Assembly (NCBI GenBank): GCA_910587325.1
Contig: CAJUKB010000006.1
Span: 831-64,830, forward strand
Source of the DNA: an uncultured Bacilli bacterium
Lineage (GTDB): Bacteria > Bacillota_I > Bacilli_A > RF39 > UBA660
Direction: 5' to 3'
Length of the DNA: 64,000 bases
Shown here in pieces: positions 6,579 to 30,904 of this stretch. Both the position numbers and the translations under genes were made by a program. Below the pieces are notes generated by a model, which was not told the DNA's origin, did not search any database, and was given only the letters and a program-made list of their open reading frames with translations. How positions within the stretch are numbered: position 1 is the stretch's first letter; each line of letters begins with the position of its first letter.

Positions 6579-7010
6579 GTGATATATATGCTTATTAATT
6601 ATACGACAAAAGAACTGGAATTATTAGCAAGAATTATGCGTGCAGAAGCACTTGCTGAAGGAAACCTTGGAATGCTGATGGTAGGAAATGTAGTCGTAAA
6701 TAGAAGTGTTGCAAATTGTTTAACCTTTAAAAACATTCGTAGCATTACTGATGCCATTTACCAAGCAAACCAATTTGCTGGAACCAATTCTTCTTTATTT
6801 CAAGCCTCTCCTACAACTCATGAAAAAAACTTAGCAGAAAGAGTATTACGTGGAGAATACTACTATCCTGCAACCCATGCTTTATGGTTCTATGCACCTG
6901 CCAAAAATACAAGTTGTCAATCTACTTGGTATGGACAAAAATTAGCTGGAAGTTATAGAAATCATTGTTTTTATAGACCAGATGCTGGAACTTGTGAAGA
7001 ATTGTATTAA
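6579..7010 (+). CDS. Cell-wall hydrolase, SleB/CwlJ (Hydrolase_2) family
   Basis: ELELLARIMRAEALAEGNLGMLMVGNVVVNRS...IYQANQFAG matches the conserved SleB-type catalytic domain. Confidence 0.75.
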   Translation: MIYMLINYTTKELELLARIMRAEALAEGNLGMLMVGNVVVNRSVANCLTFKNIRSITDAIYQANQFAGTNSSLFQASPTTHEKNLAERVLRGEYYYPATHALWFYAPAKNTSCQSTWYGQKLAGSYRNHCFYRPDAGTCEELY

Positions 7011-7024
7011 GCCATATGGCTTTT

Positions 7025-8257: not shown

Positions 8258-9102
8258 TAAAAATCTCCTCCATCGTTATCCCATATAATGATTTTAGAAA
8301 TAAGATCATAAAGTTCTTCTTTAGGTAATGCAAATTTCTCTATCTCCTTTACAATAAATCTAAAGTCCTCATCCGTTTTCACTATAATATATTTTAAATC
8401 AGAATATTCAAAAGTTAAAGAAATCTCTTTATTTTCAATCATGGAATCGCTAAGATCTTTTATATTCCCCAAATCAATAATAGTATCACCAAAATATATA
8501 GGGCTATAATCAGTTTTTGAAACATCTGGGATATATCGCCATTCACATTCATCTGTAAAACATTTTTCTAATGTTTTCTTTTGCAACCGATTTTCCATTT
8601 TTCCCGAATATGGTTTCATATATACTAATTGAGACAATAATTGACTTTTCAAATTTTTTTCTAAAATTGATTCTGGCAAATTTATTGTTTTCAATGCCAA
8701 ATTAAATGCTTTTGTAAAGTCTTTTCTAAAATTTGAAGATGGATTGATATAATGAATTGGTTGAATGTTATTTCGCATTGCCCATTCTTTAGTGAAGGCT
8801 AATCCATAAAATCCATACCAATTTAAATGTTCCCTTATTCTATGTAAATTTATATCGCAAAAACATTTCATAGGTATATATATTTTTTTAATTCTTTTTT
8901 TGTCTTCTTGAACTCTTAAATAACTTATATTTTCTTCACAATATCTTGGGGAAAGCATCTTATTTTTTAAAGGAAAAATAAGGTAAGAAATGTCAGTTGT
9001 AAAATTAAATAAAGTATCTGGATTGACTATAGAAGGAATATGGTTATTAGAAGATTCATAATCTTTAATATTTTTTAAAACTAGATTTGTTTCTGCCTTC
9101 AC
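8257..9102 (-). CDS. Hypothetical protein; upstream member of a two-gene pair (possible AbiGi-like)
   Basis: 281 aa, translationally coupled to the 410-aa ORF. The AbiG-like assignment rests only on sizes, order and neighbourhood (Fic, tRNA, ICE). Confidence 0.4.
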   Translation of the reverse strand: MKAETNLVLKNIKDYESSNNHIPSIVNPDTLFNFTTDISYLIFPLKNKMLSPRYCEENISYLRVQEDKKRIKKIYIPMKCFCDINLHRIREHLNWYGFYGLAFTKEWAMRNNIQPIHYINPSSNFRKDFTKAFNLALKTINLPESILEKNLKSQLLSQLVYMKPYSGKMENRLQKKTLEKCFTDECEWRYIPDVSKTDYSPIYFGDTIIDLGNIKDLSDSMIENKEISLTFEYSDLKYIIVKTDEDFRFIVKEIEKFALPKEELYDLISKIIIWDNDGGDF

Positions 9103-9257
9103 TTAATACAACCTTCTTTACCTATTATTTTTTTAACTGCATTTCATTTTTTGTACTTTATGTTAACTCTAAATTACAGAAAAAGCAACTTATATTCCAT
9201 AAAAAAATACCAAATTTAATTACATTAATTAAATTAGTATTTTTTCATATTTTTACT

Positions 9258-10213: not shown

Positions 10214-11896
10214 TTATCCTTTCTTCTTTTTTCGTGGTTTTACTTCTTTTCTACGAGAGAACGGTGGTTTCTCATATACAAATTCAGTCTTAGGAATAAC
10301 ATTAAATTTATATGTTATTTCTATTTTTCTATCATTATCTATGACTATTTTTTCTATTAACATATCATATATTTCTTTATTTGATTTTTTTAAATCTAAT
10401 AGTTCCTTTATCTTTTTTGTGTAATCTGGAATAACATTTGGTTTATTTTTAATTTGATATTTTTCTATCTGCTTTTGTTGAATAAGTTCATTAATTTTTT
10501 TTAGTTTTTCATCACATTCTTTTGAAAGTTCTTTATACATTTCAGCAGATATAATATCGTTGCATCTATCTTCATAGAGAATGGATAATTTTTTTGTTAT
10601 CTTGTTTTTTTCTGTTTCATATTGAGTTATTACTTTATCAATTTCATTAGTATTTTTATTGATTCTTTTAGCTACTTCATCATTTAATTCCTTAATATTT
10701 AATTTTTTTATATAAACATTAATATCATTATTTATTTTTTCAATCAGTTGTTTTTCTAAATGCTCATAAGGGAAATAATGAGTTCCGCATCTTTGTCTAA
10801 CAGGATCTCTAGAATATCTATTGCAATTAACACTCCAAACATCCGTTTTTTTATGATATTGAACAGATAATCTATTACCACATTCTTTACAAAAAAGCAT
10901 TCCTTCAAACATTCTTATTTCTCTATCTAATTTAGCTTTACATATTCTTGTATGACTTTTTTTAATATTTATACAATATTCAAAAGTTTCTTTATCTACT
11001 AATGCCTCATGTGTATCCTCAACAACTAACCAAAGTCTTTTATCTAGTGTTACTTTTTTCTTGGACTTATAATTAACCTTTGCTTGGGTATGCTGTATCA
11101 TATCTCCTGTATAAATCCTATTATCTAATATTTTCCTTACAGTAGATATATTCCACTTAGTTGCATCAATTAATCTTGATGAATATGCTGTTCCTTTATA
11201 TGCACTAGGTGTTGGCACTCCTTCATCATTTAATCTAGTTGCTATTTCAGAAGGACCGATTCCATCAACTCTCCATTTAAATATTTTTTTTACTATTGGA
11301 GCTGTTTCAGGATTAGGAATGAGATGTCCTTTATCATTAGGATCTCTCATATATCCATAACTTGGTAAACTACCAACAAATTTTCCCTTTTGCCTTTTTT
11401 CATTTAAAACATTTCTTATTTTTATTGAATTTTGTTTACTATAATAATCATTACATGCAATTATGAAAGTTGATGAATCATTACTTGCCTGATTTTTAAA
11501 GCTGTCATAAGATTCTAATATTGAAATAAATCTAATTTGATTTTCAGGAAAAAATGTTTCAATATAATATCCTGTCATAACATGGTCTCTACCTAATCTA
11601 GATAAGTCTTTTACAACAACACAATTTATTTTTTTGTTTTTTATATCTTCCATCATTTTTTGAAAACCAGGTCTGTCAAAATCAGTTCCAGAAAAACCAT
11701 CATCAACATATTCATTTACCAAATTAAAATTATGATTTTTAACATAATCTCTTAATAATTCTTTTTGATTAGCAACACTTTCACTATCAGATTCATATTT
11801 TTTGTCTTTGTCTCTATCTTCCTGAGATAATCTTATATATATCCCTACATTAAATTCAACATCAGTTAAGTAATTATTATTCATCTTTACCTCCAT
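10214..11896 (-). CDS. Large serine recombinase (resolvase catalytic domain + recombinase domain + zinc ribbon + coiled coil)
   Basis: N-terminal VGIYIRLSQEDRD (catalytic Ser) followed by VVVKDLSRLGRD. Central recombinase domain. Cys cluster CKECGNRL...CNRYSRD...CGTHYF. Sits at the element end. Confidence 0.9.
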   Translation of the reverse strand: MEVKMNNNYLTDVEFNVGIYIRLSQEDRDKDKKYESDSESVANQKELLRDYVKNHNFNLVNEYVDDGFSGTDFDRPGFQKMMEDIKNKKINCVVVKDLSRLGRDHVMTGYYIETFFPENQIRFISILESYDSFKNQASNDSSTFIIACNDYYSKQNSIKIRNVLNEKRQKGKFVGSLPSYGYMRDPNDKGHLIPNPETAPIVKKIFKWRVDGIGPSEIATRLNDEGVPTPSAYKGTAYSSRLIDATKWNISTVRKILDNRIYTGDMIQHTQAKVNYKSKKKVTLDKRLWLVVEDTHEALVDKETFEYCINIKKSHTRICKAKLDREIRMFEGMLFCKECGNRLSVQYHKKTDVWSVNCNRYSRDPVRQRCGTHYFPYEHLEKQLIEKINNDINVYIKKLNIKELNDEVAKRINKNTNEIDKVITQYETEKNKITKKLSILYEDRCNDIISAEMYKELSKECDEKLKKINELIQQKQIEKYQIKNKPNVIPDYTKKIKELLDLKKSNKEIYDMLIEKIVIDNDRKIEITYKFNVIPKTEFVYEKPPFSRRKEVKPRKKKKG

Positions 11897-15047: not shown

Positions 15048-18000
15048 TTAATTAGCATATTTTTTGAAATTTTCTGCTTGAGCAAGTACCTCTTCATACA
15101 CAACATCATTTGTTACTGGAGGATATCCAAATTCATCAAGTAAAATAATCAGATCTTGTTGAAGTTCAGCTTTAATATTATCTTTTTTAGACCAATCAGT
15201 ATATTTTGATTTATCTGATACAATTTCTTTAATTTTTTTAGATAATTCAATCATTTTTTCTTGTGGATATTCAAATCCATATTTTACTGAAACAGCAAAT
15301 AAAATATCTAAAAAAGCTTTTTCCTCAAAATCAATTCCTAGTGCTTTAAAACTATTTTTATCTTCTTCAAGGTCTTTCATTAAATTAGTTAGTTCATCTG
15401 AAACTTCTTCTAAAACATTCATAGCAAATTTTTCATCAGCAGATCTGTCATTATAACTATCAATTAAAGTTTGAAGCCTATCCATAAACTCTACACCTTT
15501 TATTTTATTTACTTTCTTATATTCTTCAATAGCTGATTTTAATAATCTTTGCAAAATTTTAATTTTGGTATTTGGCATATTTAATTTATCTAATTTTTTT
15601 AAATAATCTGTACTAAAGATATCTACTTCTCTCACCGTAAATTCTTTTTCTTCTTCAAAAAGTTCTTCTACCCCATCACTAATTAGAGCTTCTTGAATTA
15701 GTTGTCTAACCTTTTGATTCATCAAATCAATATCTGGAGCATCTCCTTTAGTAAGTTTAAAAATTATAGATCTAACAGCACCATAGAAATACATTTTATC
15801 TCTTTCTTCATTAGTTATTTCTTCGTTAGTTCCACAAATATTAAATGCAGATTTGAGATTTTTAGCTCCATACATAAATCTTCTTTCATCTTCTTCATTT
15901 TGTTGAATATATTCTGAAGCTTGATTCAAACAATTTAATCTTTCTACAGGAGTCCCATTAAAGAATTTTGAATTATCAAAATTTCTAAACAATCTATCAA
16001 TAATATCCATCTGATCTCTAAAAACTTTTATTGCTTCTTCTAATCCCTCAAATACAGATGAGTCTTCAGAATTAAATTTCTTTAATGCTAATTGCATTCT
16101 ATTTTTAATACCAATATAATCAACAATTAATCCTTTATCTTTTCCTGGATATTTTCTATTAACTCTAGAAATTGTTTGAATTAGTGTATGGTCTTGTAAT
16201 GGTTTATCAATATACATAGTATCAAGACTTGGAACATCAAAACCTGTAACCCACATATCAACAACAATAGCAATTTTGAAGTTGGATTTTTCATTTTTAA
16301 ATTGTTTATCAAGTTTTTTTCTATATGCTTTATTACCTAATAATTCATGAAGTTCTGGAACATCATTACTGTCCTCGGTCATAACCATATTAATTTTCGG
16401 AATTTCAAACAATTCATCTTGTTCTTTTTTGCTTAATTCATCAAAATTTTCTGCTTTCTTTGGAGTAGCCCAATCTGGTCTTAATTCTATTATAATTTTA
16501 TATAAATCATAAGCAATAAATCTATTCATGCAAACAATCATTGCTTTTCCGTTTACAGTAGCATTTTCAAATACCCTTTTTTCATAATGATTTATTATGT
16601 CCTCAGCAACTCTATGTAATACATCATGATCACCAACAATAACACTTAAATGAGTTGAAGCTTTTTTACTTTCTTCTATTTGATATTCATTTGCTCCTTC
16701 TTCAACACATAAATTATAATATTTTTCTACTTCTTTAATCTTTTCATCATCAAGAAGAACTTTAGCTGATCTTCCTTCATAAGTTATATTTACAGTAATT
16801 TCGTCTTTAACTGAATCTTTCATCGTGTATGCATCAACTATTTCTCCAAACACTTCCATTGTTGCATCTATAGGAGTACCAGAAAATCCAACATAGGTTG
16901 CATTTGGTAAAGAATCATGAAGATACTTTGCAAAACCATATTTCACCTTTACATCAATATCTGTAATTTTATAATTCTTATCAATATTGGTTTGACTTCT
17001 ATGAGCTTCATCTGAGATACAAACAATATTATTTCTATCACTTAATAGGTTAAAGTCTTCAGAGAATTTTTGAATTGTTGTCAAATATACTCCTCCACTT
17101 TCAGTTTCAGACAATATTCTTTTTAGTTCATCTCTTGTTTCAACTTTTTTAATAGTATTATCACCAATAAAATTTTTTGCATTTTCAAAAGTCTTAGCTA
17201 ATTGATCATCAAGATCTGTTCTATCAGTAATTAATATGATTGTCGGATTTTTTAAATCAATATCTTTCATTAAAAGTCTAGATAGATATAACATGGTATA
17301 ACTTTTACCAGATCCAGTTGCACCAAAATATGTTCCACCTTTCCCAGTTCCAATAGGTTTCATATTACTCTTTATACTTTCCAATAGACTTGTAGATGCA
17401 TAATATTGAGGATATCTACATACTATTTTCTCTTCATTTTGGGAATTGTCAGGAAAATATATAAAATTTCTTATTACATTTAATAATCTTTCTTTATTAA
17501 ACAATCCTAGAACCAATGTATGTAACGAATCTATTCCATCAGTCTCTTTAGATTTTTCATTAATTCTTCTCCACGCATAAAAATATTCATAATCTGAAAA
17601 GATAGAACCAATTTTATTATTTACACCATCACTTATAACACAAAAAGCATTATACTTAAAGATTGTTGGTATATCTCTTTTATATCTAATTGTCAATTGT
17701 TCGTAAGCATCATGAATTGTAGTATTTTCTTTAACAGCACTTTTAAATTCAAAAATAACAAGAGGAAGACCATTAATATAGATTATTCCATCTGGTATTC
17801 TTAAATGGTTCTCTTCAAATTCTAATTGATTAACTACTTTAAAATTGTTTTTATCAATTTCATTTTTAGAATAATTAATTAAATTAATATGTATATCCTT
17901 ATCATTGGGATTTTCTCTTTTAAAATCAAATCCATCAGATAAAATTTTTATGAATTTTTTATTTGCTTCATATATTGGATATTTTTCTAATGATTTAATA

Positions 18001-18194
18001 TCTTTAATAATAAAATTTGCTTCATTCATTGAAATATTATAATTTAATAATAAAAATTTTTTTAAATCTTCCTCTAAGATAAATTCGTTTTTTTCTTTAT
18101 GAAGTTCATCACCAACAAAATGATTATAACCATTAGCAGTTAATAAATCCATTATTGCCGATTCAAGAGTGGCTTCACTAAAACTACTTTTCAT
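15048..18194 (-). CDS. hsdR: Type I restriction enzyme, R subunit
   Basis: 1048 aa. Walker A GATGSGKSYTM, DEAH-box ISDEAHRS, helicase C-terminal domain, N-terminal HSDR_N-type nuclease region. Downstream of hsdM-hsdS. Confidence 0.9.
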   Translation of the reverse strand: MKSSFSEATLESAIMDLLTANGYNHFVGDELHKEKNEFILEEDLKKFLLLNYNISMNEANFIIKDIKSLEKYPIYEANKKFIKILSDGFDFKRENPNDKDIHINLINYSKNEIDKNNFKVVNQLEFEENHLRIPDGIIYINGLPLVIFEFKSAVKENTTIHDAYEQLTIRYKRDIPTIFKYNAFCVISDGVNNKIGSIFSDYEYFYAWRRINEKSKETDGIDSLHTLVLGLFNKERLLNVIRNFIYFPDNSQNEEKIVCRYPQYYASTSLLESIKSNMKPIGTGKGGTYFGATGSGKSYTMLYLSRLLMKDIDLKNPTIILITDRTDLDDQLAKTFENAKNFIGDNTIKKVETRDELKRILSETESGGVYLTTIQKFSEDFNLLSDRNNIVCISDEAHRSQTNIDKNYKITDIDVKVKYGFAKYLHDSLPNATYVGFSGTPIDATMEVFGEIVDAYTMKDSVKDEITVNITYEGRSAKVLLDDEKIKEVEKYYNLCVEEGANEYQIEESKKASTHLSVIVGDHDVLHRVAEDIINHYEKRVFENATVNGKAMIVCMNRFIAYDLYKIIIELRPDWATPKKAENFDELSKKEQDELFEIPKINMVMTEDSNDVPELHELLGNKAYRKKLDKQFKNEKSNFKIAIVVDMWVTGFDVPSLDTMYIDKPLQDHTLIQTISRVNRKYPGKDKGLIVDYIGIKNRMQLALKKFNSEDSSVFEGLEEAIKVFRDQMDIIDRLFRNFDNSKFFNGTPVERLNCLNQASEYIQQNEEDERRFMYGAKNLKSAFNICGTNEEITNEERDKMYFYGAVRSIIFKLTKGDAPDIDLMNQKVRQLIQEALISDGVEELFEEEKEFTVREVDIFSTDYLKKLDKLNMPNTKIKILQRLLKSAIEEYKKVNKIKGVEFMDRLQTLIDSYNDRSADEKFAMNVLEEVSDELTNLMKDLEEDKNSFKALGIDFEEKAFLDILFAVSVKYGFEYPQEKMIELSKKIKEIVSDKSKYTDWSKKDNIKAELQQDLIILLDEFGYPPVTNDVVYEEVLAQAENFKKYAN

Positions 18195-19321
18195 TACATC
18201 ATCTCCTTAGTAATTTTTAACAAAAAAATTCTTTTTAGATTTTCCAATATCATATTTTCTCTTTCAAGACTAGAAATTAATTCAAAAAATGTTTCTATTT
18301 TATTATTAAACTTTTCCAAATCTTCTTGTGTAGGTATAAGAAATGGCATATTTTTAATTATCGTAGAATTATATGCCGTTGCTATTGAGGATGTACTACC
18401 AAGTTTATTAAAATCAAAGTATTTTAAATAGCAATATGTATAATATTTATATTCTTTATTAGATGTATTAAAATGTGCAATTGCTTCATTAGTAGCCATA
18501 TCAGTTTTTAATATTCCTACTCTACCTACTGATAGTTTAAAGCTCATTATTACCGTATCTTTAGATATCTTCTTTACCCTATAATTTTCTTGTGCATAAT
18601 TTGTTAATTTTTCCCTAGTATCATATAAATGTATTTTATCTTTCATATCAGCTATTGAAACCCATGGTAAATCTAATTCATTTTCAGAGAAAGCATTATA
18701 ATCTTCACGATCTGGTGTACCACCAATACTTATATCAAATATATTCTTAACTTTATCCACAGTTCCATTTTTACCAAACAATGGTACAAATTTCAAAAAA
18801 ATATTTTTTATTTGTTCTGAAATATTATTAATCATTCTAACATTACTTTCAATCACACTTAGTATTTGTGTATATTGCTCTACTGTTTTATTTTGAATTT
18901 CAATTGAAGGGGGATTAAATTCTATATTACATAAGTCTTCCCATCCTATGCTACCTCTAACACTACTATCCGTCTTGAACCATAAATAATGATCCAAATC
19001 TTTTCTTCTGAACCAAAGCATTAAATAATTTGGATTAAGATGTTGTTCACTTTTTACCTTAAATAACATATATGCAGGTGAAATTATTGATGGTTCATCA
19101 TCTTGGTATAAACAAATCGGTAAAACTTTATCTCTTCCAACATGCATTGGATTACATGCAAAATAATTTTTTCTTAATAGCTTATACTTGCTTAAATCCG
19201 TTCCAACTATATTAGCCACTGATGATATAAATTCTTTATACTTATTTATTCCCAATAGATTAGAATATAAATTGTCTGTATTTTTTTCAGAAACTTTTTC
19301 TATAAAATTACCTAATTTCAT
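18194..19321 (-). CDS. hsdS: Type I R-M specificity subunit, two target-recognition domains
   Basis: 375 aa between hsdM and hsdR with overlapping start and stop. Bipartite repeat organisation typical of HsdS. Confidence 0.8.
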   Translation of the reverse strand: MKLGNFIEKVSEKNTDNLYSNLLGINKYKEFISSVANIVGTDLSKYKLLRKNYFACNPMHVGRDKVLPICLYQDDEPSIISPAYMLFKVKSEQHLNPNYLMLWFRRKDLDHYLWFKTDSSVRGSIGWEDLCNIEFNPPSIEIQNKTVEQYTQILSVIESNVRMINNISEQIKNIFLKFVPLFGKNGTVDKVKNIFDISIGGTPDREDYNAFSENELDLPWVSIADMKDKIHLYDTREKLTNYAQENYRVKKISKDTVIMSFKLSVGRVGILKTDMATNEAIAHFNTSNKEYKYYTYCYLKYFDFNKLGSTSSIATAYNSTIIKNMPFLIPTQEDLEKFNNKIETFFELISSLERENMILENLKRIFLLKITKEMM

Positions 19322-20885
19322 TTTCTATATCCTCTATAATACTTTGAAGTTTATTTTTTAAATCAGTATTTATATTCCATTCCTTTTGCAATTCGTCATT
19401 AATAGTTAATATCTCTTTATCAATCTCAACCTCAATTTCTGGATTTTTATATTTAATGTATGTACTAGGAACAAGTAAATAATTATTTTTTACTATCTCA
19501 TCAGAACTAGCAGAATAGCATAATTCATCAATATTACTATAGTTTTCTTTATTAGTTAACCAAGTATGATAAATAGATGATATTTCATTAATATCTTTTT
19601 TAGTAAATTCTAAATATTTTTTTTCATAAGGTGAGCCATAATTTCTTAAATCCATAAATAAAGTTTCTTTTTCATGATTTCTTACTTTGACTTCTTGACC
19701 ATTTATTTCTTTAATTCTTTCCCTTTTGCTATTTGTTACAATCCATAAACATACACTAATATCTGTTGTATAAAACAGATTCATAGGTAATATACAAATG
19801 GCTTCTACTAGATCGTTTTCTATAAGTTTTTTTCTAATACTATATTCTACTCCATCTCCAGATAAGGAACCATTAGATAATAAGAATCCTGCTGTCCCAT
19901 TACTACTCAATTTTGAAATTATATTTAATATCCAACCATAATTTGCATTTCCAGTAGGAGGAGTATCATATCCACTCCATCTTTCATCATCGGTTAACTC
20001 ATCTTCTTTCCTCCATTTTTTTTGATTAAATGGAGGATTAGCCATTACAAAATCAGCTTTTAAATCTTTATGTTGATCTTTAAAAAATGTATCTGCTTCA
20101 GATTCTCCTAAATCAGCTGAAATACCTCTTATTGCTAAATTCATCTTTGCTAATTTATATGTAGTACGGATGTTTTCTTGCCCATAAATTGATATATCAT
20201 TTCTATTACCATTATGACTTTCAACAAATTTAACAGATTGAACAAACATACCACCAGAACCACATGCAGGATCATAAATTTTTCCTTTATATGGTTGAAT
20301 CATTTCTGCAATTAAATTTACAACACTTTTTGGAGTATAAAATTCTCCTTTACCTTTACCTTCAGCTAATGCAAATTTTTTTAAAAAGAATTCGTAAACT
20401 CTACCTATGATATCATTTTCTTTATCTTTTAAAGTATTTATTTTATTTATTTCATCCAATAATGAAGCAAGTTTGGCTTTATCTAAATTCAATCTAGAAT
20501 AATAGTTATCAGGTAATGCTCCTTTTAATGATTTGTTGTTTTTCTCTATTTCGGATAATGCAGTATCAATTTTAATAGCAATGTCATCTTGCTTAGCATT
20601 TTCCATTATATAACTCCATCTGGATTTCTTTGGTAAATAAAATACATTTTTGCTCATATAAAATGATGGTTGATCCACAAATTTCTCATGTCCTTCTTCT
20701 ATAATTTCCTTTCTTCTTTCTTCAAATTTATCACCAACAAATTTCAAAAAAATTAAAGATAAAACAACATGCTTATATTCAGCTGGTTCAACAGAACCTC
20801 TTAACTCATCACAACTATCCCATAATGTATCTTCAAAACTTTTTTCTTTTTTTGCCATAATAACCCACTCCAATCGTAAAGACAT
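19308..20885 (-). CDS. hsdM: Type I R-M N6-adenine DNA methyltransferase
   Basis: HsdM N-terminal domain. SAM motif DPACGSGGMF. Catalytic motif IV VMANPPFN. Confidence 0.9.
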   Translation of the reverse strand: MSLRLEWVIMAKKEKSFEDTLWDSCDELRGSVEPAEYKHVVLSLIFLKFVGDKFEERRKEIIEEGHEKFVDQPSFYMSKNVFYLPKKSRWSYIMENAKQDDIAIKIDTALSEIEKNNKSLKGALPDNYYSRLNLDKAKLASLLDEINKINTLKDKENDIIGRVYEFFLKKFALAEGKGKGEFYTPKSVVNLIAEMIQPYKGKIYDPACGSGGMFVQSVKFVESHNGNRNDISIYGQENIRTTYKLAKMNLAIRGISADLGESEADTFFKDQHKDLKADFVMANPPFNQKKWRKEDELTDDERWSGYDTPPTGNANYGWILNIISKLSSNGTAGFLLSNGSLSGDGVEYSIRKKLIENDLVEAICILPMNLFYTTDISVCLWIVTNSKRERIKEINGQEVKVRNHEKETLFMDLRNYGSPYEKKYLEFTKKDINEISSIYHTWLTNKENYSNIDELCYSASSDEIVKNNYLLVPSTYIKYKNPEIEVEIDKEILTINDELQKEWNINTDLKNKLQSIIEDIENEIR

Positions 20886-21143
20886 ATTTCTAAGTAATTA
20901 TAGCATAAATTGTCAATTTACACTATATCTACATTGAAATTTCAATATAAAAAGAGTATTTTTTAAATACCCTTCTTAAAGTTTTAATTCCATCCAAATT
21001 TATAAATAAGATATCCAACTATCAAACCACTTGCTACTGCAACCAGCACCTCTAAAAATATTTTCAATTTTTTATTTTCTTCTTGCTTTTGAGTATTATT
21101 GTTACCTATTGTTGAATTCTTTATTTTATTATTATTCCCTATA

Positions 21144-21818
21144 TTAACACCCATTATTATCACCTACAGTACTATTTTTGATTTCACTATTATCTCCGAT
21201 GTTAACAGAATTATCATTATAAACTATAGTTTCTATTTTTTCTATCACTTTTGCCTTCTTATCATCATCAGAAAAATCTATATATAATTCATCAAGGTTT
21301 CCATAATTTTCTTCTAATACTTTAAAAATATTCAATATTTTATCTTTTATAGTAGATAATATTGTATTATATGAATATATGCTTAATTCTCTTCTGGCTC
21401 TTATAACCGAACCATTTGTTTGCTGATATTTATTCACTAACACTGTATTTGCATCTAAACATAAGGAATGTTCAGATGATTCAGTTTCTGCTTCTGCTAA
21501 TTTCATGATTGTGGAAAGCGGATCATTTATATCAGCCTTTGAGAAGAATTCAAATGCTTCTTTATCAATGAAAGGAATATTAACATTTTTGTATATTGCA
21601 TATCCAACTTGGATATCTCCAACCAACATAGTACTAACCTTTCTATATTCTGGTATTTTATCATCTTTTTTATAACCATTTATTTCATTATTAACCCAAT
21701 CTTTTATTTCTGTATCATTAATATCTTCTAACATAAAATCTAAACTTTGCATAGCTTGAAGAACATTAATTTTATTCATAATTAAATCTTTTATAATTTT
21801 ACTTCTTTGTTTTGGCAT
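21144..21818 (-). CDS. Hypothetical protein between the coupling protein and hsdM
   Basis: 224-aa ORF, acidic, with an N/D/S-rich C-terminus. No motifs recognised. Confidence 0.4.
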   Translation of the reverse strand: MPKQRSKIIKDLIMNKINVLQAMQSLDFMLEDINDTEIKDWVNNEINGYKKDDKIPEYRKVSTMLVGDIQVGYAIYKNVNIPFIDKEAFEFFSKADINDPLSTIMKLAEAETESSEHSLCLDANTVLVNKYQQTNGSVIRARRELSIYSYNTILSTIKDKILNIFKVLEENYGNLDELYIDFSDDDKKAKVIEKIETIVYNDNSVNIGDNSEIKNSTVGDNNGC

Positions 21819-21880: not shown

Positions 21881-23992
21881 CTATTTCATTCCTAAACTTA
21901 AATTAGGATTTTCATTATAAATATTTATTATTGTTTTATCTTCATATTCTTTTATTTCAGTGTGATAAAATTCTGACTTTATTTTAGTATTAAGCAAAGA
22001 TTTTTCTTTTTGAATTAGTCGTCTGTCAACATCAACTTTCATATAAACTCTATGATTTACTGTAATGTTATATTTAATATCAAAGTCACTTTTGAATATC
22101 TTCTCAATTATGATTTCAACTGGTTTTAGATTTTCTTTGTCAGCAAGTTCTAAGGCATCATAATATTCTTTAGAAACTTTATTATCCCTTGATCTCTTAT
22201 TTTTTACCTCATGCTTTATATCTTCAACTGTAAAATATGTATTAGATAGGCTTTTCAATGGATTGGATGTTCTTTCAACTGTACCTGATTCATAGCAATT
22301 AAACTTGCTATATAAAATAGTATCTCTAAATATAGGAAATCCTATGATTGGAAAAATAATTGTCTTGTAGTGTAACTGCTTTACTTCCTCTGGTGTCATT
22401 AAATCTCTACCAATTAAATTGGTGGATTTATCACCATTATAATTCATCAAAGACATAGATTGTCTTACACTATTAGATTCAATAGTTTTCTTACCTAGTC
22501 TTTTTGAAATTGCTTCTGCTGTTTCTTGGGTATTAGTTTTAAGATATACCAATCCACAGTTATCAAGAATTATTTGTGCAACATCTTTACCATATACATT
22601 ATCTAACTGAGAAAAAGATTGAATAAAAAAATGAAAGTGCATTCCTCGTGATCTTGCAACAGATACTATTGCTTCTATATCAGCAAGTTGAGGACAGTTA
22701 GCAAATTCATCAAGAATAAATTCTATTTCCAAAGGCAATTTCTTTTTCTCACTGCTATTAGCAAGTTTTACTAAATCCCTGTATAGTAACCCTACTATAA
22801 TAGTTACAAGTGTGAAATATGTTTTATCTTCATCTGGGACAATTACATATAATGCAACTGGTTCTTTACCTAGAACATTAAATTCAAAATCACTTGTACT
22901 AGTAACATTTGCAACATTAATGTCATCAAATATATTCATTTTTTGACCAAACACTGCTGTAATAGATTTATATGTATTATCACTAGCACTTAATATGCTC
23001 ACTAATGCATCTTTAGATTTACTACCATACTCTTTAGTATTGATATAATCTTTAAACTTTTTAAAGTTATTTTCTTCCATAGAACTATTTTGAAATTTTC
23101 TAATACTTGTCATAGTAATCTTATCTCTAGTAATATTTCCTTCTTTATACTCTTCTAAAAAAAATCCAATTAGTCCTTCTAATAGATTCTTTGCAGAGTT
23201 ATTCCAAAAAGGATCTTTTTGCTCTACTTTTTCTTGCATCACCATCGTTGATAAAGAAGATATAAGTCTATTTGTTTCGGCATAATGTGACATAGATTCA
23301 TTATTCATTGATATTTTCTCATTTTTCAACTTTTCTATTATCTCTTTATTGTTTTTAATTTTATTATTAATTCTGGAAATATTGATAACACTTAATTTAA
23401 GTTTTTTTAGCTTATCATTCAACATATCATTTTGTTCAATATATGGATTTATAGTATTTTGAATTTCAATAGATTTATTTTCAAATTTAATATATTCTTC
23501 ATATTCTTTGATAATCGGATCTAATATATTTATCTTATTTGATAATTCTGGATTTCTAAAATCTATAGTTAATATTTTATAACCTTGATTTTGAAACATC
23601 TTTGATGTGGTTTGATAAATTTCTCCTTTTGGATCAGTGATAAAAACGCTTCGTTTCTTTTTTGCTTTTGAAATAAAAGTACAAGTCGGAATTACTGCTG
23701 TTACACTTTTACCACTACCTGTAGATCCTAAATAAACATAATGAGGTGTTTCCCTGTCAAAATAAACATATTTTAAGTCTTTGCTAAACGAAACAGGAAA
23801 CCCTGCTTCAATAATATGATTAACCTTTTCCTTTTTAAAATTACTTTTTATTTCAGCATCTGTACTAAATCTTGCTGATCCATATTCATTATCATTTTTT
23901 ACTTTATGCTTCATTAGTAATGGTTCAAGATAAATAAAGCCCAACAAAAAAACTATTAAAATCACAAGTAGGATAATTAAAGTGGTATTCAT
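21881..23992 (-). CDS. Type IV secretion coupling protein (VirD4/TraG family ATPase)
   Basis: N-terminal TM helix. Walker A YLGSTGSGKSVTAVIPT. Walker B-like LEIEFILDEFAN. 703 aa. Confidence 0.75.
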   Translation of the reverse strand: MNTTLIILLVILIVFLLGFIYLEPLLMKHKVKNDNEYGSARFSTDAEIKSNFKKEKVNHIIEAGFPVSFSKDLKYVYFDRETPHYVYLGSTGSGKSVTAVIPTCTFISKAKKKRSVFITDPKGEIYQTTSKMFQNQGYKILTIDFRNPELSNKINILDPIIKEYEEYIKFENKSIEIQNTINPYIEQNDMLNDKLKKLKLSVINISRINNKIKNNKEIIEKLKNEKISMNNESMSHYAETNRLISSLSTMVMQEKVEQKDPFWNNSAKNLLEGLIGFFLEEYKEGNITRDKITMTSIRKFQNSSMEENNFKKFKDYINTKEYGSKSKDALVSILSASDNTYKSITAVFGQKMNIFDDINVANVTSTSDFEFNVLGKEPVALYVIVPDEDKTYFTLVTIIVGLLYRDLVKLANSSEKKKLPLEIEFILDEFANCPQLADIEAIVSVARSRGMHFHFFIQSFSQLDNVYGKDVAQIILDNCGLVYLKTNTQETAEAISKRLGKKTIESNSVRQSMSLMNYNGDKSTNLIGRDLMTPEEVKQLHYKTIIFPIIGFPIFRDTILYSKFNCYESGTVERTSNPLKSLSNTYFTVEDIKHEVKNKRSRDNKVSKEYYDALELADKENLKPVEIIIEKIFKSDFDIKYNITVNHRVYMKVDVDRRLIQKEKSLLNTKIKSEFYHTEIKEYEDKTIINIYNENPNLSLGMK

Positions 23993-24438
23993 ACTATATC
24001 ATATCCTTTATCTAATTCTCTACAGTAATCTATAATTTTATCTAGTGTATCATTTGAATCTAAAGAACAAAGATACCTTTCTAAATCATCTTCTTGATCT
24101 TCAGTAATTTTAATATCATTATCATTTAAATAGGAATATGCAAAGTACTTCATAATATCATCTTTATATTCATATAGTTCTTGCTCAAAAGCATAATACT
24201 GTCCCTGTTGAATCTGCTTTATTATGTCATTAGGATTACCAAATTCTTTAGTTGCTTCATCAATATACCATAAATTATTCTTTCCCCATTCAAATAAATC
24301 TGATGTATATATAGCCACATTGCTATTAGCAATTTCGGAAAACACATCACCAATATAACCAGAATCATAATTTGCAATATCTGAACCATAACAAAATTTT
24401 AGTTCTAATTTTAAATTATTTATTATATCATCATACAT
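23989..24438 (-). CDS. Highly acidic small protein (candidate anti-restriction / DNA-mimic)
   Basis: 149 aa, strongly acidic (D/E/Y-rich). First of three consecutive acidic ORFs. Confidence 0.4.
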   Translation of the reverse strand: MYDDIINNLKLELKFCYGSDIANYDSGYIGDVFSEIANSNVAIYTSDLFEWGKNNLWYIDEATKEFGNPNDIIKQIQQGQYYAFEQELYEYKDDIMKYFAYSYLNDNDIKITEDQEDDLERYLCSLDSNDTLDKIIDYCRELDKGYDIV

Positions 24439-24462
24439 ACTTTTCCTCCCATAATAAAAGAA

Positions 24463-25053
24463 CTATTCAAGTTCTATGTTATCTTTTTTCTTTTGCTCTA
24501 AATAATCACTATATTCCAAATCCTGACTTAACCATTTATCTGCATATTCATAGTCCTCTAATGGAAACTCTTCAATCCAATAATTTTCTGGTGGACAGGC
24601 TGTAGCATCTATACAAACAATCTGATTATGTTCATCAAAATAATAAAATGAAACTTCATTGCTTTTAATTATATAATCGTTGTATAAATCTTTTATATCT
24701 TCATATCTATCAAGTGTACTTTTATATATTTTATTATTCTTTTCAGCTAAATACTTATCAGCTTTAAATCTTAACAAATCTATTTTATCTATATCAAAAT
24801 ATTCTATAAGTTGTTTTTCTTCTTCATGGCTAACATCTTCTGGATCAATTGATGATCCATATATATGATTTGTTCCATCAGTAAAACATATTTGATTATC
24901 ATTCAAATGCTCTTTTACCCCAAAATAAATATTAGTATATCTATCTCTTTCCGACCCTTCAGAACTGTAAATACAATCTTCAAAAAAAGCCATCACTTCA
25001 CTTTTTGATTCAAATTTCATTAAATCTCCACCACAATTAACATATATATTCAT
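24463..25053 (-). CDS. Highly acidic hypothetical protein
   Basis: 196 aa, D/E-rich, no catalytic motifs. Confidence 0.4.
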   Translation of the reverse strand: MNIYVNCGGDLMKFESKSEVMAFFEDCIYSSEGSERDRYTNIYFGVKEHLNDNQICFTDGTNHIYGSSIDPEDVSHEEEKQLIEYFDIDKIDLLRFKADKYLAEKNNKIYKSTLDRYEDIKDLYNDYIIKSNEVSFYYFDEHNQIVCIDATACPPENYWIEEFPLEDYEYADKWLSQDLEYSDYLEQKKKDNIELE

Positions 25054-25487
25054 ATTTTAAAGTCCTTCTTATCGTATTGGTTCATATTATCTTTAACCCA
25101 TTCATCATCAAACTCTCTTATCATACTAGGATATTCTAAATCCTGTTCCTCCTCATTCTGACTTTCATAGGATAATTCATCATAATCATCATAATATTCG
25201 CCTATTCTTGCATATCTATAAGACATATCTTTTTCTTCTAAATGCTTTAGTCCTTCCATGATTGCTGTTACATCTTCATAATCTTCACAATAGTCATACC
25301 ATTTAATTGAATCCCAACCAAAATATTTTGACCATTTATTTTCACTTATTATTTTGCAGTCATCTAAAAGATTACCATAGGTATAATTATTTTGTTTTAA
25401 ATAATTATTAGTAAATTTTTTTAGTTCATCAAAACCTTTTTTTGATGTAATTATTCTTACATCTGATCTATAGCCCATACATTTCAT
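25050..25487 (-). CDS. Highly acidic hypothetical protein
   Basis: 145 aa, D/E/Y-rich C-terminal half. Overlapping start/stop with its neighbours. Confidence 0.4.
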   Translation of the reverse strand: MKCMGYRSDVRIITSKKGFDELKKFTNNYLKQNNYTYGNLLDDCKIISENKWSKYFGWDSIKWYDYCEDYEDVTAIMEGLKHLEEKDMSYRYARIGEYYDDYDELSYESQNEEEQDLEYPSMIREFDDEWVKDNMNQYDKKDFKI

Positions 25488-25552
25488 CTCCTCTCTTTCT
25501 AATAAGACACAAAAAAACAGATCAATTTACGATCTGTCCCTTTTTATATTTA

Positions 25553-26719
25553 TTAAAATATTTCTTTAAATGCTATCACCATTTCATCTATACTTTTATA
25601 TCTTTCAGAAATATTACCAGATATTCCTTTACTAACAAACTTTTTGATTTTCTCATTTGTAATTTTTTCAAGATTTGTTTTTCCAGTCATAACAAACAGT
25701 ATTAATCTTGTCAGTGCATAAGTTTCATATTCTATTGAGTAATTTTTAAAACCTATAACTGCCAAGTTACTATCATTTAATGAGCCTTTTATATCAGAAT
25801 CTGTAGAGGTTAAATTACTATCTTTTTCTTTAACTAATCCAAAGTCAGATATTTTTATTATATCAGAATTATCATAATGTTTTATCAAAATATTTGTTAA
25901 GCTGATATCTCTATGAAGCAATCCTTTACTATGTATATATGAAAATGCTTTAAAAATTTGATATACCAAATTTTTTCTCTTTTCCAAAGATATTTTACTA
26001 TTATTTTTTATTATATAATTATACAAAGTTTCATCAATAAATTCAGCATAATATTCGTTATTATTTTCATCATATCTATATACTTTTAAAACATATAGTG
26101 AATTTAACTTTTGCATTGTTATAAATTCCTTTTTAAATCTTTCTAACTCCTTTTCTGTTAAATTTTTTTTTGCCTTTTTTATTATTACTGGGACATTATA
26201 AAATTCATCAAAATATTTAAACACATGTGCATAAGATCCTTCACCAACTAGAGTTAATTTATATCTTTTTTCAATGTTATTCTGATTTAACTTAACCGTT
26301 TTTGTAAAAAAGAATATAGGCTCATAGTCTACTATTCTTATATGGGTTAAGTCATCTGGTATAGTACTTCCACCACTTGGTACTAAGAACTTTTTACATT
26401 CATCAAAAAAATCTTTATATTCCTTATTAATATCAAAAGCAAAAGTTGAGTCCTTTAAAACATACCTAATATTTTCATACAAATCAATATAATGAATTAA
26501 CTCTCTACTTTCATTAGCATTAAAATGTCCATTGGTTTTATGATACATAAAATCAATTAGGCTATTTATTTCTTGATGCAAAGTAGCAAAAATTAGTTTT
26601 ATATATTTATTATCAATATCATCATACAGTTCTTCTGTTTTAATTGCTCTATCAATTTGAATTTCACTATATTTTTGTTTTAAAAAATATTCTATATTAA
26701 TTGCCATTTTACACCTCAC
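25553..26719 (-). CDS. Eukaryotic-like Ser/Thr protein kinase with an N-terminal ~140-aa domain of unknown function
   Basis: Kinase subdomains are present. Gly loop LVGEGSYAHVF. VAIK-like VIIKKAK. Catalytic loop HRDISLTNILI. DFG motif ISDFGL. Confidence 0.75.
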   Translation of the reverse strand: MRCKMAINIEYFLKQKYSEIQIDRAIKTEELYDDIDNKYIKLIFATLHQEINSLIDFMYHKTNGHFNANESRELIHYIDLYENIRYVLKDSTFAFDINKEYKDFFDECKKFLVPSGGSTIPDDLTHIRIVDYEPIFFFTKTVKLNQNNIEKRYKLTLVGEGSYAHVFKYFDEFYNVPVIIKKAKKNLTEKELERFKKEFITMQKLNSLYVLKVYRYDENNNEYYAEFIDETLYNYIIKNNSKISLEKRKNLVYQIFKAFSYIHSKGLLHRDISLTNILIKHYDNSDIIKISDFGLVKEKDSNLTSTDSDIKGSLNDSNLAVIGFKNYSIEYETYALTRLILFVMTGKTNLEKITNEKIKKFVSKGISGNISERYKSIDEMVIAFKEIF

Positions 26720-26747
26720 ATAGTTAAAACTAATACCATTATATCAC

Positions 26748-28031
26748 TTATTTATCATATTCTTTATCCATTTTAAATAACTTATCAAAATCTCTTTCTG
26801 CTTCTTCCAATTCATCATTTATACTTTTTACTGCTTGTCTAATTTGGTATTTATTTTTAAATTTATTACTACTTGGATTGGATGACAAATAGTTTAACAA
26901 AATGGTATATTTTGACTGTTTATTATTTCTTTTGTATTGCTTATAAACAATTTCTTGAATTAAATCATTTTCCGTAATTTTTGTTTTATTATGGTGATAA
27001 TAAGCATGATTGATTATGGCATTTAAAACATAATTATCTAAATACTTTTGTTTTTCTTTTATTAATGAATTATCTACTATATTTGAATTATTACTTTTAG
27101 CAATCTTGATAAAATAATCATTAATACTTACTAAATTTTTTTTAAATTGCATATATTCATCTTTAAAATTAGAATCTTTTGAAAAGATATATTTTTTTAT
27201 TTCTTTTGTTAGAGCCTTTATCTCTTTATCCTTAATAGAATTAAATTTTATTCTTGTATTTGAAGATTCTCTTTTTTCAGATATTAAATTGCCTAACTTA
27301 ACAATTTTATCTTCTAATAAAATATCTTCTTTATCACGAAGTAAAAAATTTTTTTCTTTTGGATTAAAATATCTTTTTAAAGATTCAATCTCTTGATTAG
27401 TTTCTTTTAGTAAAGGTGTAAATACTTTTTCTTTTTCAATATAATGTTCTATCTCATTTTTTAAAAATCCTAACTCTTTTTGTGATAACTTACCAGCATG
27501 TCTATATTTTAATTCTTTTCCATAAGATTTATAATTGGGTTTCTTTTCAGCAAATGATAAATGAAAATGAAGATTATCTTGATCAGTATGAAGTGAAAAC
27601 TGATAACTTATATTTTTAATATCAGCATAGCCACACTTTTTTAGAAACATTGGAATAATATGTTTAGCCATTGCCTTTTCAAATTGAGGGATATTCACAC
27701 TTTTTTCTAAATATCCTTCAGGAAAAGAAATGACTAATTTGTTAATATTAGAATTTTCAATATATCTTGCATATTGCTTTTTCCTTTTTTCAATTTCATC
27801 TTTGGTAGCATATTCACCATTTTCAAACATAATATTCATTTCTTCATTTTTACCAAATTTACCACTAAAATAATCTAGCATAAAAAATGCTTTTTTCTTA
27901 TTATCAGAATAATAATCAAACATATTCATTGTGGAATCATATACTGATTGTTGAGTTTTATATTTATTATTAAGACTTTTGTAGCTAGGAGTAAACATAT
28001 TCATAACAACTACTTTAGGGGTGTTAGTCAT
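26748..28031 (-). CDS. Conjugative relaxase, MOBP-type (relaxase/mobilisation nuclease domain)
   Basis: Three-His metal motif HTDQDNLHFHLSF (HxDxDxxHxH). Start set to MTNTPK at 28031 because the ORF-track start overlaps the upstream RHH gene. Confidence 0.7.
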   Translation of the reverse strand: MTNTPKVVVMNMFTPSYKSLNNKYKTQQSVYDSTMNMFDYYSDNKKKAFFMLDYFSGKFGKNEEMNIMFENGEYATKDEIEKRKKQYARYIENSNINKLVISFPEGYLEKSVNIPQFEKAMAKHIIPMFLKKCGYADIKNISYQFSLHTDQDNLHFHLSFAEKKPNYKSYGKELKYRHAGKLSQKELGFLKNEIEHYIEKEKVFTPLLKETNQEIESLKRYFNPKEKNFLLRDKEDILLEDKIVKLGNLISEKRESSNTRIKFNSIKDKEIKALTKEIKKYIFSKDSNFKDEYMQFKKNLVSINDYFIKIAKSNNSNIVDNSLIKEKQKYLDNYVLNAIINHAYYHHNKTKITENDLIQEIVYKQYKRNNKQSKYTILLNYLSSNPSSNKFKNKYQIRQAVKSINDELEEAERDFDKLFKMDKEYDK

Positions 28032-28347
28032 TATATTTATCCTTATATCGTTCAGACTTGAATTTTTGTAAAGCTTTATTATTATTTGGATTAAAAACTT
28101 TTTCAATTTCCATATCTGCATAAAATTGTTCTAATAAATCTTTTATATAAATCTGCCTAGAGTATATCTTTTCCATCAAAGAATTATTTAAATCTAACTT
28201 TTTATTGGTATCAATATTATTTAAACCTTGTTCAATTAATTTTCTAACAGCTTGAGAATATTTCAAATCATTAGCAGTACTATAATCTCTTATTCTCTTA
28301 TCTAATTCATTAGTTAATGAAATATGGGGACTTATCATAATATTCAC
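28024..28347 (-). CDS. Ribbon-helix-helix relaxosome accessory protein (MobC/CopG-like)
   Basis: 107 aa. Beta-strand ISLTNELDKRI then helix YSQAVRKLIEQGL. Its stop overlaps the relaxase start by 8 nt. Confidence 0.45.
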   Translation of the reverse strand: MNIMISPHISLTNELDKRIRDYSTANDLKYSQAVRKLIEQGLNNIDTNKKLDLNNSLMEKIYSRQIYIKDLLEQFYADMEIEKVFNPNNNKALQKFKSERYKDKYND

Positions 28348-28788: not shown

Positions 28789-28915
28789 AAATAGTTAATA
28801 ATCCTACTTCGATTATTTCAATTAACATATCATTAATACTTATTCCTCTAGAATCAGCTTCTACTTTAACTCTTTTAAATAATATATCTTTTATTCTTAA
28901 TAAAAATCTGTGCAT
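28733..28915 (-). CDS. Small RHH-like putative regulator
   Basis: 60 aa. RVKVEADSRGISINDMLIEIIEVGL resembles a CopG-type strand-helix. First ORF after the repeat-rich intergenic region. Confidence 0.3.
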   Translation of the reverse strand: MHRFLLRIKDILFKRVKVEADSRGISINDMLIEIIEVGLLTIYEKEEKYGKIKYKQTNSK

Positions 28916-28937
28916 TTTATCACCTTTCTTTTTGGTT

Positions 28938-29155
28938 TTAATTGGTTTAGTTTAGACCATAGTTTTCAAAATTATTATTACTAATAATTTAAGAGCATAA
29001 GAAGTTGATATCAACACTTTAAATAAAGACTTATAAAATAAGACTTTAGTGTGATATCAAACATATTTTGCACTTGCAAAATGAATCCATTACTATGGTC
29101 TAAACTAATAAATAATCCCTTATATAATAAGGATTTTTTATGGTCTAAACTATGG
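28938..29155. promoter_or_regulatory. Candidate oriT / control region upstream of the relaxase operon: three copies of GGTCTAAACTA plus palindromes
   Basis: TAGTTTAGACCATAGTT (28938-54) is the reverse complement of ACTATGGTCTAAACTA (29091-106). A third, direct copy lies at 29139-55. A hairpin AATCCCTTATATAATAAGGATT lies between. The palindrome GTTGATATCAAC and TGATATCA lie upstream. Confidence 0.4.
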
Positions 29156-30124: not shown

Positions 30125-30904
30125 CTATTTACTTGATATATCATTTGATATAATTTTCTCAACAATCTTATTATTATCAATATCTATAATAATAAGATCA
30201 ATTATCTGAATTAGATATTTTTGTACAGTATTAAAATCTTTTACAATTCTGTATACAGAATCAGGCATTACTCGTAAAAAAGTGTTTTCTGATAAAGATG
30301 TTATTGCAATAGAGTATCGATGTGTCATTTGATTTCTTAATTCACAAATATAATCATGGACACCTTTATTTATGTCTGAATCTGTAATATCAAACTTTTC
30401 ACTGATATAAGATAATATTTCTTGAAAGTTCATTTCATTGCAACCTTTATTTGATAGCTCTGTAATAATATTTTTATAACTAACCTTTTTAACATCCTTG
30501 CCTAAATTATAATATAAATTTAATAATTGGGCCAAAGAATCCCATAATATAATTTCTCTAAATAAAGCATTTTCAAAATAATAACAAGCATTATTCTCAT
30601 TTTCACTTAAGATGTTATTCATTGGATTAAATGTATTATAATTAACTTTTTGATATTCATCTATACATTTTTCAATAGAGATTCTTGTTTTATTAGACAG
30701 ATCATTTATTGATTCTATAAAATGATTGTACTTAAAAAATTTCTTAATATCACTATCCACTGTATTTCCAATTATTCCTGCAATATATTTACCATTTTCA
30801 AAGTTTATATGCAAATTTTTCAAATTTATTTTATATTCGTTTAATAAAACTAAGAGTTCTTTTTTATCTTTTTCATTTATCAACGGTTTAAAATCTTTCT
30901 TCAT
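30125..30904 (-). CDS. Hypothetical protein with possible HEPN-type Rx4H motif (Abi-like)
   Basis: 259 aa, mostly helical. ELRNQMTHRYS fits the HEPN Rx4-6H motif. No other motifs. Confidence 0.4.
   Translation of the reverse strand: MKKDFKPLINEKDKKELLVLLNEYKINLKNLHINFENGKYIAGIIGNTVDSDIKKFFKYNHFIESINDLSNKTRISIEKCIDEYQKVNYNTFNPMNNILSENENNACYYFENALFREIILWDSLAQLLNLYYNLGKDVKKVSYKNIITELSNKGCNEMNFQEILSYISEKFDITDSDINKGVHDYICELRNQMTHRYSIAITSLSENTFLRVMPDSVYRIVKDFNTVQKYLIQIIDLIIIDIDNNKIVEKIISNDISSK

Follow-up and report, generated by a model that had tools for sequence, protein, structure and literature searches.

The closest described counterparts of the gene reported here are the Ser/Thr kinase Stk2 of Staphylococcus epidermidis/aureus, the E. 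coli defence PD-T4-6 and the abortive-infection (Abi) proteins of the AbiJ type. In the summary of Depardieu et al. 2016 given in PMC6532042, a phage protein activates Stk2, core host proteins are phosphorylated and the cell dies. PD-T4-6 is a single-protein kinase defence, while AbiJ-type proteins combine a variable N-terminal input domain with a C-terminal toxic effector, a HEPN RNase. The gene in question lies in a stretch of 64,000 nucleotides (hereafter the window) from an uncultured Bacilli bacterium (GenBank assembly GCA_910587325.1, contig CAJUKB010000006.1, positions 831 to 64,830), within an integrated conjugative element (ICE). Its complete coding sequence (25553..26707), established from the list of open reading frames (ORFs), the starts of its homologues and a translation check, encodes 384 aa plus a stop codon. 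The product consists of a sensor-like N-terminal domain (hereafter N-domain; aa 1-136, 26300..26707), an inter-domain linker (aa 137-146, 26270..26299) and a protein-kinase domain (aa 147-384, 25556..26269), all encoded on the minus strand. We favour, with modest confidence, the reading that this protein is a one-protein sensor-kinase of the Abi type, carried as defence cargo, Stk2-like in action and without an obligatory partner.

Both Stk2 and the window kinase are single-gene, stand-alone, eukaryotic-like kinases on mobile DNA, presumed to be cytoplasmic and provided with extra N-terminal sequence, and by analogy the window kinase would be expected to act in a similar way, sensing infection and then phosphorylating many proteins. 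However, the PADLOC model of Stk2 (PDLC02375; E-value (E) 1.8e-29) aligns aa 149-387 with profile positions 123-354 of 500, which leaves about 122 N-terminal and 146 C-terminal profile positions unmatched, whereas the window protein ends with its kinase domain. The Stk2 profile has no match in the N-domains of 42 diverse members of the family, and the Stk2 trigger, PacK, has no known equivalent for the window kinase. The kinase domain also matches more than 20 PADLOC models of PD-T4-6 (PDLC040xx; best E 1e-24), but these models hold the kinase N-terminally (about positions 5-170 of 290-510) and then other domains, whereas the kinase is C-terminal in the window protein. By these comparisons the window kinase is akin to Stk2 and PD-T4-6 in concept and a member of neither family. 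Its design is closest to that of AbiJ-type proteins, with a kinase replacing the HEPN effector: its input domain recurs with alternative toxic effectors, including Abi_C, it has no obligatory partner and it is carried on plasmids and ICEs. It differs from AbiJ in the nature of the effector and in that its N-domain matches no AbiJ_NTD or AbiTii family of Pfam.

Other assignments were considered and rejected. The score against MAD6 (NCBIfam NF047741) is 56 bits where the cut-off is 460, and the window shows no partner genes of a MADS system next to the kinase. Against the housekeeping PknB/Stk1 PASTA kinases (NCBIfam NF033483) the score is 75.7 bits where the cut-off is 450, it comes from the kinase core only, and Pfam gives no PASTA match. 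The PADLOC matches to mad6, Stk2 and PD-T4-6 are also not taken as evidence of defence, because they cover only the generic kinase domain and because the housekeeping PASTA kinase of S. thermophilus is picked up by these models as well (PMC11514479).

The two domains of the protein

The limits of the kinase domain rest on Pfam PF00069, the alignment of homologues and Foldseek. PF00069 (Pkinase) matches aa 156-362 with 98.6 bits against a cut-off of 31.7 (E 5.2e-28). The top Foldseek matches of the domain are S. aureus PknB/Stk1 and ULK1, and the probability of 1.00 to the PknB, ULK1 and CDK kinase domains indicates a bilobal kinase fold. Counted on the 384-aa protein, the motifs are GEGSYAHV (aa 155-162, the G-loop), VIIKK (174-178, with K177), HRDISLTN (265-272) and DFG (288-290), and other key residues are E194, D267, S269, N272, T300/S304 of the activation loop and R369. 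An alignment of 44 full-length homologues spanning 53-98% identity shows G155, G157, K177, E194, H265, D267, N272, D288, F289 and R369 to be invariant; in 46 distant homologues G155/G157, K177, E194, H265-R266-D267, N272, D288-F289-G290 and R369 are at least 85% conserved. As read from these motifs, all residues required for catalysis are present and the protein is not a pseudokinase, but an RD-type kinase with a conserved Thr/Ser in its activation loop.

An earlier reading of this DNA (hereafter the sequence-only reading) had reported the core Hanks motifs and called the protein a Ser/Thr kinase. The motifs that it quoted are all present and the protein is indeed a kinase, but the catalytic loop is HRDxSxxN, in which the Lys of D-x-K-x-x-N, the canonical Hanks form, is replaced by Ser. 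This Ser is found in 120 of 120 close homologues and in 45 of 50 distant representatives. The Lys of D-x-K-x-x-N is a mark of Ser/Thr specificity, and Tyr kinases carry AAR or RAA instead. Since the loop lacks this Lys and the Pfam models Pkinase and PK_Tyr_Ser-Thr give similar scores on the window kinase, the Ser/Thr label is an assumption. A loop of the form D-x-S/T-x-x-N is reminiscent of the RIO and Bud32 kinases.

The first ~140 aa had been said to match nothing recognisable and the protein to lack PASTA or other sensor domains, and both statements hold. The first ~136 aa have no family match in Pfam, NCBIfam, PHROGs or PADLOC, and since in these four collections only the kinase domain of the protein is matched, they reveal no PASTA or other known sensor domain outside it. 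In the PDB the N-domain finds nothing by sequence, and by profile its best match (E 0.006) is not credible. A scan of 42 diverse N-domains with Pfam and PADLOC gave no consistent family, a Foldseek comparison with viral structures gave no credible relative, and hhalign yielded nothing beyond noise when the N-domain was compared with AbiTii and the HEPN protein that the element encodes. Structure prediction, which had been proposed as a check, gave a model of the N-domain alone with a predicted local distance difference test score (pLDDT) of 91.9 and a predicted template-modelling score (pTM) of 0.84. The N-terminus is thus predicted to be an independently folding domain, with four main helices, one short helix and short strands. 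The possibility that it is a degenerate lobe of a kinase is excluded by this fold of its own and by its presence on non-kinase proteins. In the full-length model each domain is confident but the overall pTM is only 0.59, so that the mutual arrangement of the N-domain and the kinase is not reliable in the model. Residues 137-146 are predicted to be disordered (pLDDT < 50 in the full-length model), and together with the low pTM this suggests that the two domains are joined by a flexible linker.

The N-domain contains the motifs NGHFNAxESR (aa 59-68), SGGSxIP (111-117) and YEPIF (128-132). Its most conserved positions in distant members are Y28, H44, A64, S67, R68, Y97, G113, S114, P117, I131 and F132, and conserved positions cluster in NAxESR, SGGSxIP and PIF. 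Mean pairwise identity is 33.7% for the N-domain compared with 42.7% for the kinase domain, the former being lower in 92% of pairs, and such faster divergence fits what would be expected of a sensor.

The N-domain on other effectors

The evidence that weighs most in our reading comes from a search with the N-domain alone against 1.84 billion representative proteins (E <= 1e-3), which found 278 relatives. The best 148 of these were classified with hidden Markov models built from the homologue alignment: a kinase domain is present in 75 (50 complete, 25 on truncated contigs), 26 have another C-terminal region of at least 100 aa, and 47 are too short for classification. The largest non-kinase group comprises 15-16 representative clusters in which the N-domain is fused to Abi_C, a HEPN RNase (Pfam E 3e-14 and 7e-18). 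Other fusions place it with CAP12-PCTIR_TIR, the TIR domain of CAP12/Pycsar effectors (Pfam E 4.7e-41), with TIR_2 (Pfam E 1.6e-6), with Hypoth_Ymh, another HEPN family (Pfam E 9e-10), and, again by Pfam, with a P-loop fragment. In one protein it is combined with AbiJ_NTD3 (Pfam E 4e-16), after which a HEPN-like motif follows, and a weak match (0.026) suggests a fusion to a DUF559-like nuclease region. The contigs that bear non-kinase fusions are only 1.5-2.3 kb, too short for gene context.

The N-domains of the non-kinase fusions are 35-56% identical to the kinase-fused N-domains and interleaved with them, and about ten of them have a kinase-fused N-domain as their nearest relative; among themselves, the kinase-fused N-domains average 34% identity. 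Such interleaving by similarity indicates that effectors have been exchanged repeatedly on a common input domain. Given that the same domain is joined to HEPN or TIR elsewhere, the N-domain would be a shared input and the C-terminal domain an interchangeable output. HEPN and TIR domains are standard self-harming effectors in abortive-infection systems, and their fusion to the same N-domain suggests that the kinase occupies the same functional slot.

A separate observation concerns the clusters P0158, P0180 and P0224, proteins of ~260 aa in which the N-domain is followed by a C-terminal region of ~115 aa carrying a conserved motif, 'TQCFRH(A/G)(S/A)K'. This region has no Pfam family match and may be another unlisted effector.

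These fusions also lead us to a wider proposal, which we put forward only tentatively. The ~136-aa N-domain may be a new and widespread immunity sensor of a conserved infection cue, one that drives four, five or more unrelated effector chemistries, namely protein phosphorylation, HEPN RNase activity, TIR NADase activity of two kinds and perhaps nuclease activity. On this view the kinase-bearing members would form a new one-protein defence-kinase family present in at least five phyla, with ICEs and plasmids as its vehicles, among them the pTet plasmids of Campylobacter and plasmids of dairy Lactococcus. The idea of a conserved cue comes from the near-invariant, polar, pocket-like motifs NAxESR and SGGSxIP, and the cue would possibly be a small molecule, or else some conserved component of the host or the phage.

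Genomic habit and competing explanations

The kinase gene appears as an intact minus-strand ORF at 25553..26719, 388 aa counted from a GTG, and these limits had been assigned to it by the sequence-only reading. The ORF is confirmed, but its start is not. All 120 listed homologues are ~384-390 aa long and begin where an internal ATG of the window kinase stands, and the GTG (26719-26717) shares two bases with the Shine-Dalgarno-like GAGGTG (26712..26717, minus strand), which lies 4 nt 5' of the ATG at 26707. The overlap with this site and the alignment of the homologues from the internal Met place the true coding sequence at 25553-26707. In the 40-nt gap past the relaxase stop there is an extended -10 promoter-like TGaTATAAT (26738..26746, minus strand), read by eye from the sequence and not called by a consensus promoter scan, which demands a -35; it probably acts as the promoter of the kinase gene. 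At 10 nt past the kinase stop a terminator scan found an intrinsic-terminator-like hairpin (25511..25543, minus strand; GGGACAGATC...GATCTGT, then a run of seven T) with a 14-pair stem, and it counted six such sites in the region against 1.2 expected. This hairpin stands between the kinase gene and the genes of three small acidic proteins. With its own promoter-like site, ribosome-binding site and terminator, the kinase gene looks like a self-contained cassette, an autonomous single-gene cargo that would be transcribed apart from the acidic-protein genes downstream.

The homologues of the kinase, which RefSeq labels just 'protein kinase family protein', are patchily distributed in species-representative genomes of Clostridia, Bacilli, Erysipelotrichaceae, Arcobacter-like Campylobacterota, Akkermansia, Prevotella and Vampirovibrio. 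They occur on 62 Campylobacter pTet-type plasmids, and only some pTet plasmids have the kinase gene (PMC6145009). They are also found in 21 Lactococcus plasmid records, most of them dairy (42% identity over 358 residues; one copy adjoins a resolvase), and on an 11.5-kb non-mobilisable Sarcina plasmid. A full-length homologue is present in only one of 50,697 phage records, a Bacillus phage, in which it is oppositely oriented and moron-like. On chromosomes some homologues adjoin tyrosine integrases at island edges or come directly after secA. When neighbour ORFs were clustered in 63 loci, which represent 42 non-redundant kinase groups, no neighbour family was conserved and none occurred in more than 7 of the 42 groups. 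The most frequent were tyrosine integrases (7 groups), serine recombinases (6), D12 methyltransferases (5), RhuM (5), AlwI endonuclease (4) and type I HsdR (4), and the same picture emerged when the 149 nearest neighbours were surveyed with Pfam and PADLOC. Two homologues (P0104 and P0098; loci L006-L008 and L020-L022, gene at 8001-9173 or 7001-8173) lie 32 nt past an AlwI-type restriction-modification (RM) system of two D12 methyltransferases and RE_AlwI, with a large UvrD-like helicase upstream, Mrr following the kinase and Wadjet nearby. This arrangement could be a recurrent RM-plus-kinase defence island. Another homologue adjoins an AlwI RM system and a RepA_N replicon.

The reading of the kinase as a defence protein of the Abi type draws on this mobile, partner-less genomic habit, which seems typical of defence cargo, and on the presence of other defence cargo in the same ICE, namely AbiTii, a type I RM system and a HEPN protein. 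The kinase, with all its catalytic residues, would be the effector half of a two-domain conflict protein, and the N-domain on its flexible linker the sensor or input module to which the C-terminal kinase gives the output. In an uninfected cell the N-domain would hold the kinase off. During infection, a cue from a phage or another invading element would be bound by the N-domain, which may free or oligomerise the kinase and lead to its autophosphorylation. The active kinase might then, on the analogy of Stk2, phosphorylate many host proteins, phage proteins or both, and the resulting arrest or death of the cell would abort the infection and protect the clonal population and the resident element. 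The sequence-only reading had suggested either a Stk2-type role in abortive infection or a control of transfer, and the first appears to be the better of the two.

Several points weigh against this reading. Defence genes are neighbours at roughly 8 of the 42 loci only, and many loci have just recombinases or unrelated genes; it is partly because such neighbours are found at a minority of loci that our confidence goes no further. Autoinhibition by the N-domain is purely what we infer, and the pTM of the full-length model is low. The conserved core of the N-domain (Y28, S67, R68, Y97, G113, S114, P117) would be explained by a conserved ligand, or by a role within the molecule, at least as well as by recognition of a fast-evolving phage protein. 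In the open-access literature we found no description of the kinase family or of its N-domain and no mention of the family as a defence gene, and the open-access text of lactococcal Abi reviews and Campylobacter pTet papers contains no functional study of the family.

Among the alternatives, an opposite role in conflict survives best, although we consider it unlikely. The kinase would be expressed on entry into a new host and disarm the defences of the recipient by phosphorylation, as does the T7 protein kinase (gp0.7), which is likewise encoded by a mobile element and broadly weakens defence systems through phosphorylation (PMC13645617). T7 gp0.7 acts in the anti-defence direction and has its kinase N-terminally, followed by a C-terminal shut-off domain; it serves as a model for this alternative only. 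Such a role would agree with the three acidic neighbours, one of which is weakly Ocr-like (1.7e-6), and with the homologue P0092, which in an unrelated conjugative element lies between a TrbL-like gene and ArdC, three genes upstream of the latter. Next to this copy, the 196-aa and 145-aa acidic neighbours of the window kinase have no homologue. However, the N-domain occurs also on HEPN and TIR proteins, which are self-harming defence effectors rather than anti-defence tools, and a terminator parts the kinase from the acidic-protein genes. Furthermore, many homologues have no transfer genes in their vicinity, being located on chromosomes by RM systems or integrases or else on plasmids that cannot be mobilised, and the family is nearly absent from phages. 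Relaxase genes are typically in the lagging region according to PMC11541004, which makes no mention of kinases, and were this so in the present element it would be a further point against the alternative.

That the kinase serves its mobile element as a toxin of addiction or stress, stabilising it by growth arrest on loss or stress and having no dedicated anti-phage role, is in our judgement distinctly improbable. A single gene that rides plasmids, ICEs and islands would suit such a toxin, HEPN and TIR partners are known from toxin-antitoxin contexts too, and a Campylobacter copy lies near a HicB antitoxin gene. Yet no antitoxin, phosphatase or small upstream ORF is conserved in the 42 groups, and a toxin that carries its sensor in the same protein follows the pattern of Abi proteins rather than that of post-segregational killing. 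We hold just as improbable that this is an ordinary signalling kinase, a chance passenger with a private N-terminal domain for dimerisation or localisation and no role in conflict. The bare RefSeq name, the housekeeping S. aureus PknB/Stk1 kinase domains among the best structural matches and the resemblance of the helical bundle of the N-domain to many dimerisation modules are all in keeping with this explanation, but the scores far under the housekeeping NCBIfam cut-offs, the sporadic and mobile occurrence outside the core genome and the HEPN and TIR effectors that are the other partners of the N-domain speak against it. The weakest explanation, that the kinase regulates transfer, excision or the relaxosome with the relaxase, the coupling protein or a regulator as its substrate, is suggested by its place 40 nt from the relaxase-like gene, on the same strand and before the coupling protein, in an arrangement conserved in copies with 98% identity, but it is very unlikely given that the relaxase is a neighbour in only one of the 42 groups, that most homologues lie outside conjugative elements, that the window copy shares no homologous neighbours with the one in the other conjugative element and that it possesses a promoter-like site and a terminator of its own.

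The surrounding element and the meaning of the finding

The sequence-only reading had described an ICE-borne stand-alone kinase with an uncharacterised N-terminal domain, and the markers of an integrated conjugative element bear it out. A large serine recombinase (10214-11896), a type IV coupling protein, a VirB4-like ATPase, a single-stranded DNA-binding protein and a relaxase-like gene are present, and as judged from these genes the window kinase gene is carried on such an element. Further element genes encode an M23 peptidase, a HEPN protein, a sortase, an adhesin and a ParB-like protein, and a chromosomal penicillin-binding protein gene is found beyond ~44.9 kb. A megablast of 10 kb of the window against plasmids gave no match. 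The relaxase-like gene (26748-28121, minus strand) scores 23.5 bits against the Pfam Relaxase cut-off of 24.6 (E 7e-5), and its translation shows a histidine-triad-like HTDQDNLHFH (H-x-D-x-D-N-x-H-x-H). Its listed start at 28121 runs 98 nt into the upstream ORF; in a 98%-identical element the product is annotated with 427 aa, so that translation probably begins at the Met near 28031. As had been reported, the kinase gene comes next after this gene and is followed by the acidic proteins. The stop of the relaxase-like gene lies 40 nt upstream of it, the two genes share a strand, and the coupling-protein gene is found on the other side of the kinase. Kinase copies of 98% identity sit in the same element and retain the relaxase-kinase arrangement.

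The three consecutive acidic proteins (23989-25487, minus strand) lie after the kinase terminator and before the coupling-protein gene; they have 145, 196 and 149 aa, isoelectric points within 4.0-4.5 (4.5, 4.3 and 4.1 in that order) and 22-23% Asp+Glu. The last of the three is the one with the weak PHROG match to Ocr-like anti-restriction proteins, and the other two have no match; all three may serve the element as anti-restriction proteins that mimic DNA. The defence cargo (15048-21818) occupies one end of the element, immediately downstream of the coupling-protein gene, and comprises a complete type I RM system (HsdR 15048-18194, HsdS 18194-19321, HsdM 19308-20885, minus strand) and an AbiTii protein (21144-21818, minus strand; Pfam 4.4e-26). 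A Cthe_2314-like HEPN protein (30125-30904, minus strand; Pfam 7e-10) is encoded within the type IV secretion system operon, where the genes of the VirB4-like ATPase and the M23 peptidase flank it. This is an odd site for a putative RNase toxin, yet the element copies with 98% identity keep the protein there. An AbiGi/AbiGii pair (7025-9102, minus strand; Pfam 9e-24 and 4e-29) lies a short way past the large serine recombinase, close to a tRNA-Trp gene (6432-6505). The search for an origin of transfer (oriT) upstream of the relaxosome genes turned up only short AT-rich inverted repeats. Those at 28915-29150, an intergenic region upstream of small relaxosome-accessory-like genes, include TTGATATCA/TGATATCAA at 29005-29060, and this region is a candidate oriT region.

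As for the kinase itself, the adjacency to the relaxase is incidental and carries no functional weight. The window relaxase is a neighbour of the kinase in its own group only and homologues elsewhere do without it, so that a control of transfer, the second role proposed in the sequence-only reading, is unlikely; the kinase appears to be cargo rather than transfer machinery, and the relaxase neighbourhood is no guide to its function. If our reading is true, an easily testable one-gene family would join the short list of kinase-based immunity, which includes Stk2 and PD-T4-6. It would also be of practical interest, since close relatives are carried on dairy Lactococcus plasmids, where phage resistance of starter cultures is concerned, and on Campylobacter pTet resistance plasmids. 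The main value of the finding is a newly recognised modular sensor domain. If this is indeed an unlisted sensor, one trigger, once found, would serve kinase, HEPN and TIR effectors alike.

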